Positions 4,865-10,616 of a stretch of 62,074 nt of DNA are shown here, piece by piece. The notes under the pieces are model-generated. The model had not been told where the DNA came from, did no database searches, and saw nothing but the letters and a program-made list of their open reading frames with translations. The stretch's first letter is position 1; the number at the start of each line of letters is the position of its first letter. The DNA comes from Deltaproteobacteria bacterium (lineage in GTDB: Bacteria > Desulfobacterota > Desulfobaccia > Desulfobaccales > 0-14-0-80-60-11). The stretch is from positions 1-62,074 of the forward strand of contig VGSW01000001.1 of assembly GCA_016874915.1 (NCBI GenBank), given 5' to 3'. The position numbers and the translations under genes are program-made.

Positions 4865-4865
<1 letters not shown>

Positions 4866-6175
4866 TATAAAATATACCGGCTCAAATCCTCATCCTCGAT
4901 CAAATTCGCCAGCCGGTCCCGCACATATTCCGCGGTGATGGCGATTTCCTGCTCCTCTAATTCCGGGGCTTTGAAGGAGATATCCTCCAGGAGCTTTTCC
5001 ATTACCGTGTGCAGGCGCCGGGCCCCGATGTTCTCCGTGCGCTCATTGACCCGGGTGGCCAATAGGGCCAGTTCCTTCACCGCATCCGGCCGGAAATTGA
5101 GGCGGATGCCCTCGGTGGCCATGAGGGCGTGGTACTGCTTGATGAGGGCGTTTTCCGGCTCGGTCAGGATGCGCTCAAATTCCTCCGGCCCCAGGGAGTT
5201 CAGCTCCACCCGGATGGGGAAGCGGCCCTGCATCTCGGGGATCAGATCCGAGGGCTTGGACATGTGGAAGGCCCCGGACGCGATGAACAGGATATGGTCG
5301 GTCTTGACCATGCCGTACTTGGTGTTCACCGTGGTGCCTTCCACGATGGGCAGCAGGTCCCGCTGCACCCCCTCCCGGGAGACGTCGGGCCCCCGGGTGT
5401 GGTTCCGCCCCGCGATTTTGTCGATTTCGTCCAGGAAGATGATGCCGTTCTGCTCCACCTTGCGCCGGGCCTCTTCCACCACCCGGTCCATGTCGATGAG
5501 GCGCTGGGATTCCTCTTGCAAGAGCAATTCCCGGGCTTCGGCGATCTTGACCCGCCGGGTCTTGGTCTTCTGGGGAAAGAGGCCCCCCATCATTTCCCGC
5601 AAATTGAATTCCATTTCCTCCATGCCACTGGCGGAAAAAATCTCCACCACCGGGGCCAGGCGCTGGGTGACCTCCATGTCCACGTAGCGGTCATCCATCT
5701 TCCCGTCCCGGAGCATGGCACGGAGCCGGTCCCGGGTGGCGTCCTTCTCGCCTTCCGGAGGCGGGGCGCTGCCGGGCAGGAGCAGGTCCAGGAGCTTTTC
5801 CTCCACCGCCTCCTGGGCCTTGGCCTGGACCTTGTCCCGTTCCGCGGCCTTAACCATGTTCACCGCCAACTCCATCAGGTCCCGGACCATGGACTCCACG
5901 TCCCGGCCCACGTAGCCCACCTCGGTGAACTTGGTGGCCTCGATCTTTAAAAACGGCGAATGGGCCAGCTTGGCCAGCCGCCGCGCAATCTCGGTTTTGC
6001 CCACCCCGGTGGGCCCGATCATGATGATGTTTTTGGGCGCGATCTCATCCCGCAGCTCCTCGGGAACCTGCTGGCGCCGCCAGCGGTTGCGCAGGGCGAT
6101 GGCCACGGAGCGCTTGGCGTTCTCCTGGCCCACGATGTATTTATCCAACTCCGCCACGATCTCCCGGGGCGTCAT
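4865..6175 (-). CDS. hslU: ATP-dependent protease ATPase subunit HslU
   Basis: [17 protein letters not shown], Walker [29 protein letters not shown] 4865..6220 trimmed to ATG 6175, by analogy with the E. coli N-terminus MSEMTPREIV. Confidence 0.93.
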
Positions 6176-6245
6176 ATGATCCCCGGAACCGGGGAGACTC
6201 TTAGTCAACAACGTAATCAAAATTACTTGCCCCCTTTATGAAATT

Positions 6246-6356
6246 GAGAGCTCTGCAAAGATCCATTTTGTCATTCTGAGCGAAGCGAAGAATCTAGATT
6301 CTTCGGTCGCTTCGCTCCCTCAGAATGACAAATTAGGCGACTTTTGCAAAGGTTCT
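6246..6356. repeat. palindromic element, family GTCATTCTGAGCGAAGCGAAGAATC
   Basis: Inner inverted repeat 6270-6329, flanked by CTGCAAAG/CTTTGCAAA-type outer arms. Between the cyt-b-like gene and hslU. Confidence 0.85.
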
Positions 6357-6360
6357 TAAA

Positions 6361-6978
6361 TTATTCCTGGAGAAAAAACATCCGGCGCCATTTTTGCTCT
6401 CCCCAGATAGCATCCAGGAGGGTTCCGGTGAGGTGTAAACCCAGAAAAATGGGGATGAGCCAGTTGCCGATTTCGTGAATTTCTTTAATGAAGTGGATCA
6501 CTCCCCTGGCCTTAGCCCCAGGCTGCAGATAATTAAATAACAAACTTCCGGTTAGCGCCTGCCAGGAAAATACCAAGAGGCCGAAACCCTGGATTAGACC
6601 CTTGAGACCATCATGAGAGGCCCGCTGAGGAAGCTGGAGCCGGAGCAGAGTCTGGACGTCTTCCCAGGCGGCCAGGAGCCTTTCCCGGGTGCAGGGGCAC
6701 CAATCGGCGAAGCGGACGTTGGAAGGACCCCAAAAGCCATACATAATCCGCAGTAGCAGAAACAGGCTCACGGTGATGCCCAGCCAACTGTGCACCGTGA
6801 ATCCCAGGTGCGAGGCTTTTTTATAGTCCCCGGCTAATTCTCCGGTGACCCAGGCCAGGGTGCCCCCCACCGCCAGACCTGCGTGCAGAAACCGGGTGAA
6901 GTAATCGAACTCCTCTTTTGGCGTGAGGTCAGGGCTATTGTCAATTATCGGTGCGCTCTTCTGATTTACAAGTTCCAT
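6361..6978 (-). CDS. cytochrome b561 / Ni-hydrogenase b-type cytochrome-like membrane protein
   Basis: About 205 aa with four predicted TM helices. Conserved His residues in helices (FLHAGLAV, HSWLG, IHEIGNW, GLHLTG). Family call by pattern only. Confidence 0.45.
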   Translation of the reverse strand: MELVNQKSAPIIDNSPDLTPKEEFDYFTRFLHAGLAVGGTLAWVTGELAGDYKKASHLGFTVHSWLGITVSLFLLLRIMYGFWGPSNVRFADWCPCTRERLLAAWEDVQTLLRLQLPQRASHDGLKGLIQGFGLLVFSWQALTGSLLFNYLQPGAKARGVIHFIKEIHEIGNWLIPIFLGLHLTGTLLDAIWGEQKWRRMFFLQE

Positions 6979-6999
6979 GGTTACCAATCCTTTGATGAA

Positions 7000-7030
7000 G
7001 CTGTCAGCCGTCAGCTGTCAGCTTTCAGCT
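7000..7030. repeat. tandem heptamer block GCTGTCA/GCTTTCA
   Basis: gctgtcagccgtcagctgtcagctttcagct. Confidence 0.75.
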
Positions 7031-7115
7031 AAAAGCAAAAATGTAGGGTGCGCATTGCGCACCATGTAAGGTGGGAACGGCCCACTAGATTTCCATTTCA
7101 ATCATTGTCAATAAT

Positions 7116-7967
7116 TTAACTCAAAAGCCATTCTGCAAAGTTATCAAATTTGAATATTTTTCTCTTTCTATGACCAAACTGATTTATTAAGCGAAGCATA
7201 TTGTATTGGGCTATGTCTGAAGTTATAAACATATCACAATTTGTTAAATAAATTGATTGCTGTGTGTCAATGCTTCCAGGGTTTTTTGATTTAGCAAAAT
7301 TACTTGTTTTTATTGACCTTACAAACATACCGTATGTCATACTAGAAAGGAAAAATCTCCAATGTTCAGAATAGTTAATTAATCTAATAGCAATTTCATT
7401 ATCAACAGGCGAATCAGTCCCTTTATTTGCGAGATTAGATACAAAACTAGCAATAAATTCTAGTCTGTATTGTTTGATAAGTTTTGAAAAATTAGAGGCA
7501 AAAGAATGTCGCTCCATTTTGGATAAATTAGATATTTTTTCCTGCCAAAGATTTCGGCCATTATCATGAATACTTTGGTACCATTGCTCTTGATTTTTCT
7601 TCCATCCTATTATCTTGCTATATGCCTCTCCATCTATTTGCTCTGGCTCATTTAACATGACCCAAACTTCATCCCATTCTTCCCCGATTGAATAATTCAT
7701 ATCCGGAGCCCAAACCCTAACTGCCTCTACTGCCCACTTGAGAATTTCATTAGGCATTGCCATTGGACGATAATTACCACCAATATCTTTAGCCAATCCA
7801 AGCAGGCCTTCTCTACGTTCTTTCGTGGATTCTGAGGCAAGTTCAACAACATTAAAGATGCTTAAAAATACTTCTCCTTTAATTTTAATTGCATTTTTCA
7901 ATTCCAACATCTTTGCAGAATCATATAGTCTATTTATAGCACTCGTATCTAAATAAAATGTTTTCAT
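7116..7967 (-). CDS. PIN-like domain protein with large internal insertion; AT-rich
   Basis: ORF 7116..7991 trimmed to ATG 7967 (MKTFYLDTSAINRLYD). The N-terminal YLDTS, VVELAS, and C-terminal IDTQQSIYL...MFITSD resemble the four acidic PIN positions, separated by about 190 extra residues. G+C far below flanks. Starts 11 nt after the hslV stop. Confidence 0.45.
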   Translation of the reverse strand: MKTFYLDTSAINRLYDSAKMLELKNAIKIKGEVFLSIFNVVELASESTKERREGLLGLAKDIGGNYRPMAMPNEILKWAVEAVRVWAPDMNYSIGEEWDEVWVMLNEPEQIDGEAYSKIIGWKKNQEQWYQSIHDNGRNLWQEKISNLSKMERHSFASNFSKLIKQYRLEFIASFVSNLANKGTDSPVDNEIAIRLINYSEHWRFFLSSMTYGMFVRSIKTSNFAKSKNPGSIDTQQSIYLTNCDMFITSDIAQYNMLRLINQFGHRKRKIFKFDNFAEWLLS

Positions 7968-7977
7968 TTGATTTAGG

Positions 7978-8532
7978 TTACAACTCCTCAATAATTATCT
8001 CGGAATTCGTATAAACGCACAACGACGCGGCGATAGTCATGGCCTCCCGGCAGATGTCCGCGGGGGTGAGGTCCGTATGGGCCATCAAGGCCCGGGCCGC
8101 GGCCAGGGCGTAAGGCGCGCCGGAGCCGATGGCCATCACCCCTTCGTCGGGCTCGATGACGTCCCCGGTGCCGGAGATGAGGAAGGCCGCCTCTCCGTCC
8201 ACCGCCAACAGCAGGGCTTCCAGGCGCCTCAGGACTTTGTCGGTGCGCCAGTCCTTGGCCAGTTCCACCACCGACCGGGTGAGGTTCCCCCGATGGGCCT
8301 CCAATTTCCCCTCTAATCTCTCGAACAGGGTGAGGGCGTCGGCGGAGGCCCCGGCAAAGCCCACGATGATCTTGCCGTGATAGAGTTTGCGCACCTTCTT
8401 GGCCCGGTGTTTCATCACCATGTCGCCCAGGGACACCTGGCCGTCCCCGGCCACCGCGACTTTATTTCCCCGGCGCACCATGAGGATGGTGGTGCCGCGC
8501 CATTTATCATTAGAAAAGCTCATGGGTTTCAT
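7978..8532 (-). CDS. hslV: ATP-dependent protease subunit HslV
   Basis: 184 aa. GTTILMVRR (Thr nucleophile after a short propeptide), [23 protein letters not shown]. Confidence 0.92.
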
Positions 8533-8537
8533 ATCCT

Positions 8538-8628
8538 GGGGTTAAAAGGTTAAAAGGGGAAAAGGTTAAAAGGGAAATAAATAATTTTCTTCAAAACCCG
8601 TTCCCCCCATCCCTTTTTCCTTTTTCCA
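8538..8628. repeat. palindromic element, family GGTTAAAAGGGGAAAAGG
   Basis: Related copies at 8911-8955, 13786-13860, 29613-29706, 48095-48125, 48231-48262 and 48605-48680. Confidence 0.8.
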
Positions 8629-8706
8629 ATAAGCCTGGGGCCTGCCTGCCCAGCCCGGCAATTGGGAATATGTCAACTTCGGCGGGCACGGAGGCCCGCC
8701 CCACCG

Positions 8707-8934: not shown

Positions 8935-9846
8935 TTAACCTTTTAACCCTTTCCCCCTGGGGTGGGTTTTATCATATTCCTCCATCAAATAATCCAGGTT
9001 CAAGTGCAAATATCTCTGCGTACTGGAAATGGACGCGTGCCCCAGCAGTTCCTGCACCGTCCGCAAATCCGCCTTGCCTTCCAAAAGGTGGGTGGCAAAG
9101 CTGTGGCGGAGGCCGTGGGGGGTCAGCCCCGGGCTCAAGCCCGCCAGCCGGGCCCATTTGTCCACGATGCGCGCCACCCCCCGGGTGCTGAGCCGCGCTC
9201 CGGCGGGGTTGACAAACAGGGCGGCTTCCTCGGGGCGGCCTTTTTTCTCTACGAGCTGGCGGCGCAAGGGCAAATACCCGGCCAAGGCCTTCCGGGCCGG
9301 GTCGCCCAGGAAAGCCAGCCGCTCCTTGGCCCCCTTGCCCCACACCCGCAGCACCCCTTCGTTAAAATCCAGGTCTTTCAAATCCAGCCCGGCCAACTCC
9401 GACAGCCGCAAGCCCCCGGAGTAAAAGACCTCCAGGATGGCCCGGTCCCGCCGGGGGCCGAAGCCGTCGCCTTGGGCCTCGCTTACCAAATGGAAAACCT
9501 CGTCCACCGACAAAAAGTGGGGGAGCGGCTTCTCCAGCTTGGGGCTGGGGGCCAGCCGGGCCGGGTTCTGGGTGACTACGCCCCGGCGCTGCAGAAACTT
9601 GAAAAAGGAGCGCAGGGCCGAGAGCTTCCGGGCCACCGTGGTCTTGCTCCGTCCTTTCAAAGCCAGGGCCAGGAAGGCCCGCACGTCTTTATAAGTCGCG
9701 TCCCCCAGGGAACGGTCTTCGCCCCCGTAATAGAAATCCAGAAACTGGGCCAAATCCAGGCGGTAGTTCCGCAAGGTGTGGGCCGACATCTGCCGCTCCA
9801 CCCGCAAGTATTGCAGGAAATCCTCCAGAAGTTCCCAGCCGCCCAT
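8935..9846 (-). CDS. xerC: tyrosine recombinase XerC/XerD family
   Basis: 303 aa. SAHTLRNYRLDL, HGLRHSFATHLL, LLGHASISSTQRYLH. Its position upstream of hslVU is typical for xerC. Confidence 0.82.
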   Translation of the reverse strand: MGGWELLEDFLQYLRVERQMSAHTLRNYRLDLAQFLDFYYGGEDRSLGDATYKDVRAFLALALKGRSKTTVARKLSALRSFFKFLQRRGVVTQNPARLAPSPKLEKPLPHFLSVDEVFHLVSEAQGDGFGPRRDRAILEVFYSGGLRLSELAGLDLKDLDFNEGVLRVWGKGAKERLAFLGDPARKALAGYLPLRRQLVEKKGRPEEAALFVNPAGARLSTRGVARIVDKWARLAGLSPGLTPHGLRHSFATHLLEGKADLRTVQELLGHASISSTQRYLHLNLDYLMEEYDKTHPRGKGLKG

Positions 9847-10019
9847 CTTGTTCCCGGGGAAAATAATTTCTGAAAACTAAAATATTATCATCAAATTACC
9901 ACAATGCAAAAAAATTGTCCGTTTGAAATCAATGATTTCCAAAGATTGTATGCCGTTAAGGCAATTTTAATATTGAATATATTCCAAAGAATTTCTATAT
10001 CTTTTATTGTCCATAATCT

Positions 10020-10160
10020 GAGGCTGTTGCAAAAGTTTGCCAAGTGGGAATAGTAGGTTATTTTTTGTCATTCTGAGCCACCCTTGGTGGCGAAGAATCT
10101 AGCCCCTTCGCTTCGCTCAGGGTGACAATTTGGGATTATTCGGGTAATTGCAACAGTCTC
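10020..10160. repeat. palindromic element, same family, with GAGRCTGTTGCAA outer inverted repeats
   Basis: Inner 10067-10126 (gtcattctgagcc...cgcttcgctcagggtgac). Outer gaggctgttgcaaaagt / gtaattgcaacagtctc. Confidence 0.85.
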
Positions 10161-10181
10161 AACCTAGAAAGGAGCTTTTTA

Positions 10182-10616
10182 ATGACCCTGGCGGAAGAAA
10201 TTAAGCAAATGGTGGCGGACCTCTCACCCGAGCTCACGGAAAAGAAAGGGATTTACACTCTGGAATGCCTGGTGGCGGAACGGAAAGCCTTTCTGTCCCG
10301 GAAAAAACTGGTGTACCAGGCCCGGTTCCGCATTGACGAGGCCAACAAGGAACTCCGCTTCACCGAAATGCTGAAGGAAACCGGATGGGGGCTTTCCGGC
10401 GGCGACATCGACACCAGCCCGGGCTTCGGCTTCAAGAAAGAAACCTACAAGCAGGGGCTGGGGGGCCGGGAAGGAACCATCGAAGAGCAATCCCGTTTGT
10501 TCGGGGAAAAGTATGAATATAAATGGGACCTGGGCCGAATCCGCCGGGAAGTGGAAGCCAAGGCCAAAGAAAAGGGGTACACTTTCACCTATGTGGTCAC
10601 CGGCGTGGGGTTGTAG
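10182..10616 (+). CDS. hypothetical protein
   Basis: ORF 10122..10616 trimmed to MTLAEEIKQ (ATG 10182, preceded by aaaggag). The upstream 20 codons lie in a repeat element. No family recognised. Confidence 0.45.
   Translation: MTLAEEIKQMVADLSPELTEKKGIYTLECLVAERKAFLSRKKLVYQARFRIDEANKELRFTEMLKETGWGLSGGDIDTSPGFGFKKETYKQGLGGREGTIEEQSRLFGEKYEYKWDLGRIRREVEAKAKEKGYTFTYVVTGVGL

Follow-up and report, generated by a model that had tools for sequence, protein, structure and literature searches.

A putative split-PIN nuclease gene among variable cargo between hslV and hslU in a Desulfobaccales genome

The 62,074-nt stretch of DNA analysed here (hereafter the window) is contig VGSW01000001.1 of assembly GCA_016874915.1, from a Deltaproteobacteria bacterium of the Desulfobaccales, and it carries an AT-rich open reading frame (ORF) of 283 amino acids (aa) between hslV and hslU, the genes of the two subunits of one protease complex. 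The reading that we favour, with a probability of roughly 0.55, is that this ORF encodes a stand-alone predicted nuclease with a split PIN domain, and that it represents defence- or toxin-type accessory cargo, lodged in a slot of variable content between the two genes, not a partner of the protease. Coordinates are those of the whole window and the genes of the locus lie on the minus strand, where they follow each other in the order xerC, hslV, the 283-aa ORF (the split-PIN gene in what follows), repeats resembling repetitive extragenic palindromic (REP) elements, a cytochrome b561-like gene, a palindrome and hslU. An earlier note on this DNA, made from the sequence, had described hslV and hslU as separated by about 1.75 kb, with an AT-rich ORF starting right after the hslV stop at a drop in composition, and two repeat elements, a cytochrome-b-like gene and a palindromic element ahead of hslU. 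All of these features were recovered, and the gap measures 1757 nt (6221-7977).

A protein family with a fixed helical insert

The split-PIN gene and its parts are the following.

7116-7967, minus strand: split-PIN ORF, 283 aa, GC 0.33, GC at third codon positions (GC3) 0.26
7773-7967, minus strand: N-terminal PIN half, residues 1-65 (beta1 with D7-T8-S9, beta2, E42 helix), drawn from a sub-cut-off Pfam PIN match over residues 5-53, the AlphaFold2 (AF2) model and conservation
7293-7772, minus strand: all-helical insert, residues 66-225, with an AF2 per-residue confidence (predicted local distance difference test, pLDDT) of 79-94, present in all full-length family members
7119-7292, minus strand: C-terminal PIN half, residues 226-283 (D234 helix G-S-I-D-T-Q-Q, strand F-I-T-S-D251, helix, strand, helix), drawn from conservation and hhalign
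7116-7118, minus strand: stop codon TAA

The split-PIN protein belongs to a large, unannotated family of constant architecture (275-300 aa), for which there is no Pfam, NCBIfam or PADLOC model. Searched with the window protein itself, Pfam gave sub-threshold matches to PIN and DUF2433 only, and NCBIfam gave only noise. The family comprises 58 clusters at 90% identity and, at 50% clustering, 564 representatives (E<=1e-3), 127 of which reach E<=1e-30. Nearly all members are 275-300 aa long and can be aligned end to end, meaning that the insert is a fixed part of the family and no accident of this copy.

Conservation was assessed by aligning 90 diverse members, some sharing as little as 20% identity. 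D234 is invariant, D7, T8, S9, E42, R52, R138, G231, T249 and D251 are conserved in at least 90% of the sequences, and the four most conserved positions are D7, E42, D234 and D251. Among the 90 members, 20 match the Pfam PIN family PF01850 at E<=0.01 (best 3.8e-5), and it is the only Pfam family to appear repeatedly. After excision of the insert columns, the core can be aligned by hhalign over its full length with seven canonical VapCs encoded in the same genome (P=7e-4 and 1e-3), such that D7, E42, D234 and D251 fall on the four PIN signature positions of these VapCs, D234 at the 'D..IAA' and D251 at the 'T-x-D' position. The suggestion that the ends of the ORF resemble a PIN nuclease, with about 190 residues between the second and third acidic positions, is thus borne out by the matching signature and by the Pfam matches within the family, the distance from E42 to D234 amounting to 191 residues of the 283-aa ORF.

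The AF2 model of the protein (pLDDT 89.9, predicted TM-score 0.87) has the order beta1, two helices, beta2, E42 helix, helix, insert, D234 helix, strand ending in T-x-D251, helix, strand and final helix; the insert forms eight helices over residues 72-219, one of them 34 residues long (113-146). In Foldseek searches of the PDB with this model, the highest probability and the highest target-normalised TM-score (TMt) belong to PIN proteins, led by 5h4g_A (probability 0.63, TMt 0.57) and followed by 1y82, 1ye5 and 1v96 (TMt 0.53-0.56), then by VapC and SMG6 entries, the PIN matches having E-values of 1.5-3.6. A Foldseek search of a viral library gave no match, and profile searches of PDB sequences with alignments of 30 and of 90 members returned only helical-bundle noise (ferritin, apolipoprotein E). 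Since neither sequence profiles nor fold comparisons of the PDB and viral sets gave a significant match, the insert has no recognisable relative. The protein probably has a PIN fold, a call argued at the level of the family because the window protein itself stays below the Pfam threshold. Profile and structure searches, which the earlier note had proposed as the check on its PIN assignment, agree with it in the AF2 topology and in the family-level Pfam and hhalign results, but not in the protein's own Pfam and Foldseek scores, which are sub-threshold, and they leave the insert without a match.

The hslV-hslU gap as a variable cargo slot

The borders of the gap are formed by the following features.

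8935-9846, minus strand: xerC-type tyrosine recombinase (Pfam Phage_integrase, 6e-42, and a SAM-like N domain)
7978-8532, minus strand: hslV, proteolytic subunit (NCBIfam HslV equivalog NF003964, 278 bits), GC 0.62, GC3 0.83
7968-7977, minus strand: spacer of 10 nt from the hslV stop (TAA) to the split-PIN ATG, read from the sequence
4865-6220, minus strand: hslU, AAA+ unfoldase subunit (TIGR00390, 662 bits), right border of the slot

The locus has the marks of an HslVU operon, with equivalog matches for both subunits, a single strand and xerC upstream, a position that xerC holds in nearly all relatives in the synteny comparison. The start codon of hslU is TTG, with an alternative ATG at 6178. 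The last codons of hslV (GAGGAGTTGTAA) are the conserved left border of the slot in the junction alignment, and it is exactly at the border between hslV and the ORF that GC falls from 0.62-0.70 to 0.29-0.33; the GC3 of xerC, hslV and hslU is 0.81-0.87.

Close homologues of the split-PIN gene (75-77% identity) lie directly after hslV in three further lineages, represented by four other assemblies, with homologous spacers of 10-13 nt and a homologous junction (loci L032, L037, L038 and L039). As the junction recurs in four other independent assemblies, an assembly artefact is excluded. What follows the gene differs: in L039 and in L032, which belongs to genome G062, the next gene is hslU; in L038 REP elements intervene; and in the window the REPs, the cytochrome gene and the palindrome all precede hslU. 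Among the 83 genomes of the order the gene is present in two, namely the window genome and G062, a metagenome-assembled genome of the Desulfobaccales from another genus, and it is found in none of the 40 nearest relatives.

Across this bacterial family, hslV and hslU enclose a slot whose cargo varies. It is occupied by at least one gene, differing between genomes, in 14 of the 19 genomes of the window's family (f1), and it is occupied in 2 of the 10 genomes of a sister family (f2); together these genomes hold at least nine kinds of cargo. One of them, G022 (L047:670-2330), carries a complete DarT1-NADAR pair (Pfam DarT 9e-19, NADAR-DarT1 4e-85; GC 0.27-0.29), which is recognised by both Pfam and PADLOC. 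A DUF4258-DUF2283 pair, recognised by Pfam, is found in G001, G007 and G012, and DUF2283 alone in G010 and G017. The remaining cargo has no family, or is the cytochrome b gene or a small exporter: AT-rich orphans of 146 aa (G003 and G023), 249 aa (G010) and 132 aa (G014), a 153-aa orphan (G021), the small exporter (G018) and a membrane orphan (G028). Where the site is empty it spans 89-283 bp, and the empty sites of the window's family carry the REP module seen here. In G001, a relative of the same genus, the order is hslV, DUF4258, DUF2283, cytochrome b and hslU, so that the split-PIN gene of the window occupies the exact place of the DUF4258-DUF2283 pair of G001. A literature search for a hotspot at hslV/hslU returned nothing relevant.

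The idea of foreign-looking cargo that splits hslV from hslU, raised in the earlier note, is in keeping with the AT-rich composition of the gene, its occurrence in 2 of 83 genomes and the varying contents of the slot. The arrangement is not unique to this genome, however, the gap being filled in 14 of the 19 family-f1 genomes and the junction being present in four other assemblies. The earlier note had also named what would speak against it, namely relatives carrying the same genes with native GC in a conserved operon; the same gene does occur at the same place in relatives, but it is still AT-rich there and is confined to 2 of 83 genomes.

Several features of individual slots were recorded alongside. 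The gap of G024 (L005:1038-1500) is 463 bp long, has a GC of 0.35 and no ORF above 48 aa, and may be what is left of an AT-rich cargo gene after decay. In G007, the last 49 hslV codons are present once more, in diverged form, after the DUF4258-DUF2283 cassette and just ahead of hslU (L007:767-865); this cassette seems to have brought a replacement 3' end of hslV with it, the old end being left as a remnant. The last 45 nt of hslV in G001 (L003:630-676) share only 67% identity with the window, whereas 87-98% is reached over most of the remaining gene, and they do not resemble the ends of any other relative either, which fits an exchanged hslV 3' end linked to the DUF4258-DUF2283 cassette. In G062 (L032:5944-5989, JBAVAG010000025) hslV has TGA in place of the Cys codon of its relatives (A-S-L-C-V-Y-T-N), which would remove the last 12 residues; because the near-identical contig L039, from another sample, reads TGC, the TGA is a strain variant or an assembly error. 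Finally, the hslV matches of G011 (C31:106621-107165) lie in three separate frames and include one TGA, and this copy is probably frameshifted or broken.

History and selection

Because the junctions are homologous, a single original insertion is indicated, and one event that made the hslV-to-ORF junction, now present in at least four lineages and at least two genera, would best explain the sequences. Between genera the nucleotide identity is 0.80 for the split-PIN gene and 0.81 for hslV, and the divergence of the DUF2283 cassette is also about that of hslV. These divergences were examined for a sign of lateral spread, but they fit descent with many losses as well as they fit lateral exchange through the conserved flanks. 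The possibility that the split-PIN cassette had brought its own hslV 3' end was abandoned, as the last 45 nt of hslV in the window match the family consensus.

Judged from its codons, the split-PIN gene is under purifying selection. Exactly 283 codons are kept in all four hslV-linked lineages, among which identity is 0.67-0.78 at third positions and about 0.87 at positions 1 and 2. Singleton changes number 88 AT>GC against 57 GC>AT overall, and 17 against 19 in the lineage of the window. This balance implies an equilibrium GC far below the 0.62 of the host, a hint that the gene may not be drifting towards host composition, given that parsimony on four sequences is a crude way of polarising such changes. 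In 9 of 10 other contexts the homologue is likewise poorer in GC than its flanks.

A solitary gene in varied company

There is little room for a partner gene. At the five hslV-linked loci only 10-13 nt are free before the split-PIN gene, and at the tightest of them only 22 nt after it. No antitoxin-sized ORF was seen at the window locus, an all-against-all BLASTP comparison of 21 neighbour ORFs from 10 other contexts found no similarity among them, and an Rfam search over 6100-8700 for a structured or antitoxin RNA gave only chance matches of miRNA models on the palindrome. The adjacent, co-oriented small antitoxin gene that defines a type II VapBC module is missing from the loci read, in agreement with the earlier remark that no antitoxin partner is visible.

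The more distant members of the family (34-55% identity) stand in unrelated contexts with no hslVU nearby. Their neighbours include Shedu SduA, DUF4258 together with a HEPN/MNT pair, ParE-type pairs, a WYL/TnsA protein, DUF2971, an integrase, CTD10/MC6/DUF2326 and genes of insertion sequence (IS) type. One copy, truncated to its C-terminal 95 aa, adjoins a Mrr-type restriction endonuclease gene (L036:5983-7095). Another homologue, 54% identical, is flanked, together with a 180-aa orphan, by two ABC ATPase genes in a liv-type transporter operon (L062:4177-7343), a second case of placement inside an operon. The defence- and toxin-antitoxin (TA)-type company elsewhere and the TA cargo of the hslVU slot are what lead us to a defence or toxin role for the split-PIN gene; as support from neighbourhoods, this is circumstantial.

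The same contexts bear on two other explanations. The gene could encode a housekeeping or niche RNA-processing nuclease that has no part in conflict and is kept by few lineages. Strong purifying selection, a fixed architecture over 564 representatives, the lack of a PADLOC match and the metabolic nature of some neighbourhoods all agree with this; however, the distribution is very patchy (2 of 83 genomes of the order), in 9 of 10 contexts the gene is lower in GC than its surroundings, homologues repeatedly sit beside TA and defence genes, and the slot itself otherwise holds DarTG-type and other TA cargo, so we regard such a role as unlikely.

Alternatively, the gene might be a selfish, free-standing cassette of homing type, consisting of the ORF only, which targets intergenic sites within operons and spreads by cleavage and repair via the flanks. 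The cassette indeed comprises little beyond the ORF, there being no integrase, terminal repeats or att duplication; two genera carry it at one and the same site, and the nearest relatives are without it; the 54%-identical homologue again lies between two operon genes; and the gene stays AT-rich in a host of 62% GC, with 17 AT>GC against 19 GC>AT changes in the window lineage. Yet the known activities of VapC-like PIN domains are those of RNases or of structure-specific nucleases and do not include site-specific cleavage of DNA (PMC5499597), the other cargo of the slot is not nuclease-driven, the gene has diverged in step with hslV, which vertical descent would predict, and most other contexts are defence- or TA-rich islands and not conserved operon spacers. 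We consider a homing cassette very improbable.

Comparison with known systems

To our knowledge, defence by a single split-PIN protein has so far been shown for DS-3 alone. DS-3 (working name PIN8, WP_022645725.1, 340 aa, from E. coli) is a one-protein anti-phage system of the DefensePredictor study (Science 2026, PMC13092281), with a split PIN domain and no cognate antitoxin, and it was proposed to be auto-inhibited until infection (PMC13092281). Its D7A and E42A mutants lose defence (PMC13092281, main text, Tables S8 and S11). We took its sequence from Table S8 of that paper and modelled it with AF2 from 20 homologues (pLDDT 90.5).

Both DS-3 and the split-PIN gene of the window are single genes without an antitoxin partner, and the two proteins have the same AF2 layout, with an N-terminal half of about 65-75 and a C-terminal half of about 55-60 residues and a helical insert at the same topological position. 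D7 and E42 carry the same numbers in both, and the insert-free cores align throughout with matched acidic positions (hhalign, P=0.0025). The inserts differ, that of the window protein having about 160 residues in eight helices and that of DS-3 about 215 residues in ten, and they share one short, non-collinear motif, SEHWRFFL here against AEFYRFIL in DS-3 (P=0.0014). Defence is experimentally validated for DS-3, whereas the split-PIN family is known from sequence and model. We thus liken the 283-aa protein to DS-3 by its architecture, membership of the DS-3 family not being demonstrated.

With VapC (PF01850; Group 2 of the PIN-like classification, PMC5499597) the protein shares the strand and helix order of the core and the signature positions, namely D in beta1, E in helix 3, D in the helix before beta3, and T-x-D, and its D7 and E42 are numbered as in Shigella VapC (PDB mutant entries). 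Unlike VapC, it is twice the size, owing to the helical insert of about 160 residues, has no adjacent antitoxin gene in the loci read and lacks a conserved fourth acidic residue after the last strand.

The slot itself resembles the core defence hotspots of Pseudomonas aeruginosa (PMC10250203) in that conserved core genes flank varying cargo, which here includes DarT1-NADAR, DUF4258-DUF2283 and AT-rich orphans. It differs from these hotspots in lying inside the two-gene operon of one protease complex, in the tiny size of the cargo (one or two genes of 0.4-1.7 kb, without mobility genes), and in having one metabolic resident, the cytochrome b gene.

A number of observations weigh against our interpretation. 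The window protein matches PF01850 over residues 5-53 only (E=0.075, 14.1 bits against a cut-off of 23.6 bits), it has no match in PADLOC, the hhalign probabilities are low (14-26%), no PDB entry was found by Foldseek at E<=1e-3, and at the position of the canonical fourth acidic residue of VapC, after the last strand, there is no conservation, D234 taking the helix position. Homology to DS-3 over the whole length fails, the profile-profile alignment covering only the first 47 residues (P=0.013). Some contexts are plain metabolic operons, such as liv ABC in L062. The divergence of the split-PIN gene, close to that of hslV, would fit lateral spread no better than a long vertical history marked by many losses. 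As for the structural scores, the AF2 model of the validated DS-3 fares equally weakly in Foldseek (VapC and Utp24 matches, E 0.7-3, TMt 0.3-0.43), so that weak scores are no argument against a PIN fold here.

Possible mode of action and the link to HslUV

As accessory cargo of the slot, the split-PIN protein would consist of a VapC-like PIN core (D7, E42, D234, T249-x-D251) whose halves are separated by the helical insert of about 160 residues, and would be a self-contained, auto-inhibited nuclease acting at a PIN-type metal site. Its gene would be transcribed together with hslV, as the spacer is only 10 nt long and contains no promoter-like site. The insert may replace the missing antitoxin or serve as a sensor, and the PIN site may be released upon phage infection or a similar stress, which is the mode proposed for DS-3.

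The earlier note had suggested that placement inside a protease operon could couple a nuclease-like protein to HslUV, a coupling for which only adjacency speaks and that we hold to be improbable. Put more fully, the nuclease would be functionally tied to HslUV, being co-transcribed from a stress promoter of hslVU and degraded or activated by the protease, with the operon controlling its embedded cargo. The spacer after hslV is kept at 10-13 nt in all four lineages, the junction has persisted in at least two genera, toxin-type cargo recurs in the slot (DarT1-NADAR and DUF4258-DUF2283), and in L032 and L039, where only 22 nt precede hslU, the split-PIN gene must be transcribed with the operon. 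On the other hand, distant members (34-55% identity) have no hslVU nearby, 81 of the 83 genomes of the order manage without the gene, the slot also takes non-toxin cargo (cytochrome b, the small exporter, membrane orphans), and a REP hairpin with a T-run follows the split-PIN gene in the window; a functional tie of this kind seems to us rather unlikely. A related and improbable extension makes the hslVU operon a docking or control site, at which split-PIN, DarT or DUF4258 toxins would be expressed from a stress-induced operon and held or released by HslUV proteolysis. If that were true, HslUV would take the role that Lon and Clp have for classical antitoxins, but wired in cis.

Should our preferred reading of a self-contained nuclease in a cargo slot be confirmed, the family would represent a second, unrelated insert on a PIN core, which would point to a PIN domain with a built-in regulator as a recurrent design, and it would offer a contrast to DS-3 for working out how such nucleases stay silent. 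It would also mean that the two-gene operon of one protease complex can act as a variable cargo slot, which calls for caution in operon-based inference of function, and that this slot is a convenient place to seek new small defence and TA genes in Desulfobaccales-type genomes. The oddity of a nuclease tied to a protease would then disappear, adjacency alone being no support for such a link.

Repeats and the cytochrome b gene in the gap

Between the split-PIN gene and hslU the window contains the following features.

6999-7090, no strand assigned: REP-like palindromes (7043-7063, the second at about 7069-7085) and tandem repeats of AGCTGWC type (6999-7026, D2), with genome-wide copies
6361-6978, minus strand: cytochrome b561-family gene, 205 aa, four transmembrane helices (PF01292, Ni_hydr_CYTB, 7e-22, 78.4 bits against a cut-off of 30.1 bits)
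6267-6332, no strand assigned: dispersed palindrome with arms GTCATTCTGAG..GCGAAGCGA (inverted repeats I2, I3 and I5)

The REP-like repeats are ordinary genome-wide elements. The palindrome at 7043-7063 (GGTGCGCAATGCGCACCCTAC) has 37 copies in the genome at up to 3 mismatches, against none for a reversed-pattern control, and that at 6267-6332 has nine, again against none for its control; Rfam has no family for the repeats of the gap. The module of REPs and tandem repeats is the native spacer of hslV and hslU, as it is also found between the two genes in G020 and L038 and at empty sites. A weak terminator-like hairpin lies at 7063-7047, and the promoter and terminator scans did no better than on shuffled sequence.

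The cytochrome b gene is an independent, older and recurrent resident of the slot. Orthologues at the same place occur in G001, G002, G009, G013, G017 and G032, which belong to two bacterial families, and H32, H57, H63, H168 and H182 are invariant in six orthologues. Its composition is intermediate (GC 0.54, GC3 0.64). It is a full-length member of PF01292 by its match above the cut-off (profile positions 2-177 of 179) and by the conserved histidines in membrane helices, but unlike that family it has no adjacent hydrogenase or other redox partner, and against the hydrogenase cytochrome b equivalog it scores 17 bits where 121 are required.

The region upstream of the cytochrome b start, with the first codons (cttcatcaaaggattggtaaccATGGAACTTG, within 6940-7040 of the window), resembles the leader and start of hslU at the empty site of G020 (cttcataaaaggacttgtaaatATGGAATTG). 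This likeness to the hslU leader and ATGGAA start at empty sites, seen in a short alignment made by eye, suggests that the gene landed just inside the hslU leader, and its translation may begin at a copy of the start used by hslU.

Two further AT-rich regions were noticed elsewhere in the window. Upstream of xerC there is a gap with a GC of 0.34, followed by a plus-strand ORF of 164 aa without a Pfam family (9850-10616). Between argF and argG, on the minus strand at 755-1429, there is an AT-rich ORF of 224 aa that matches no Pfam family above threshold; this could be another small piece of cargo lodged between operon genes of this genome.

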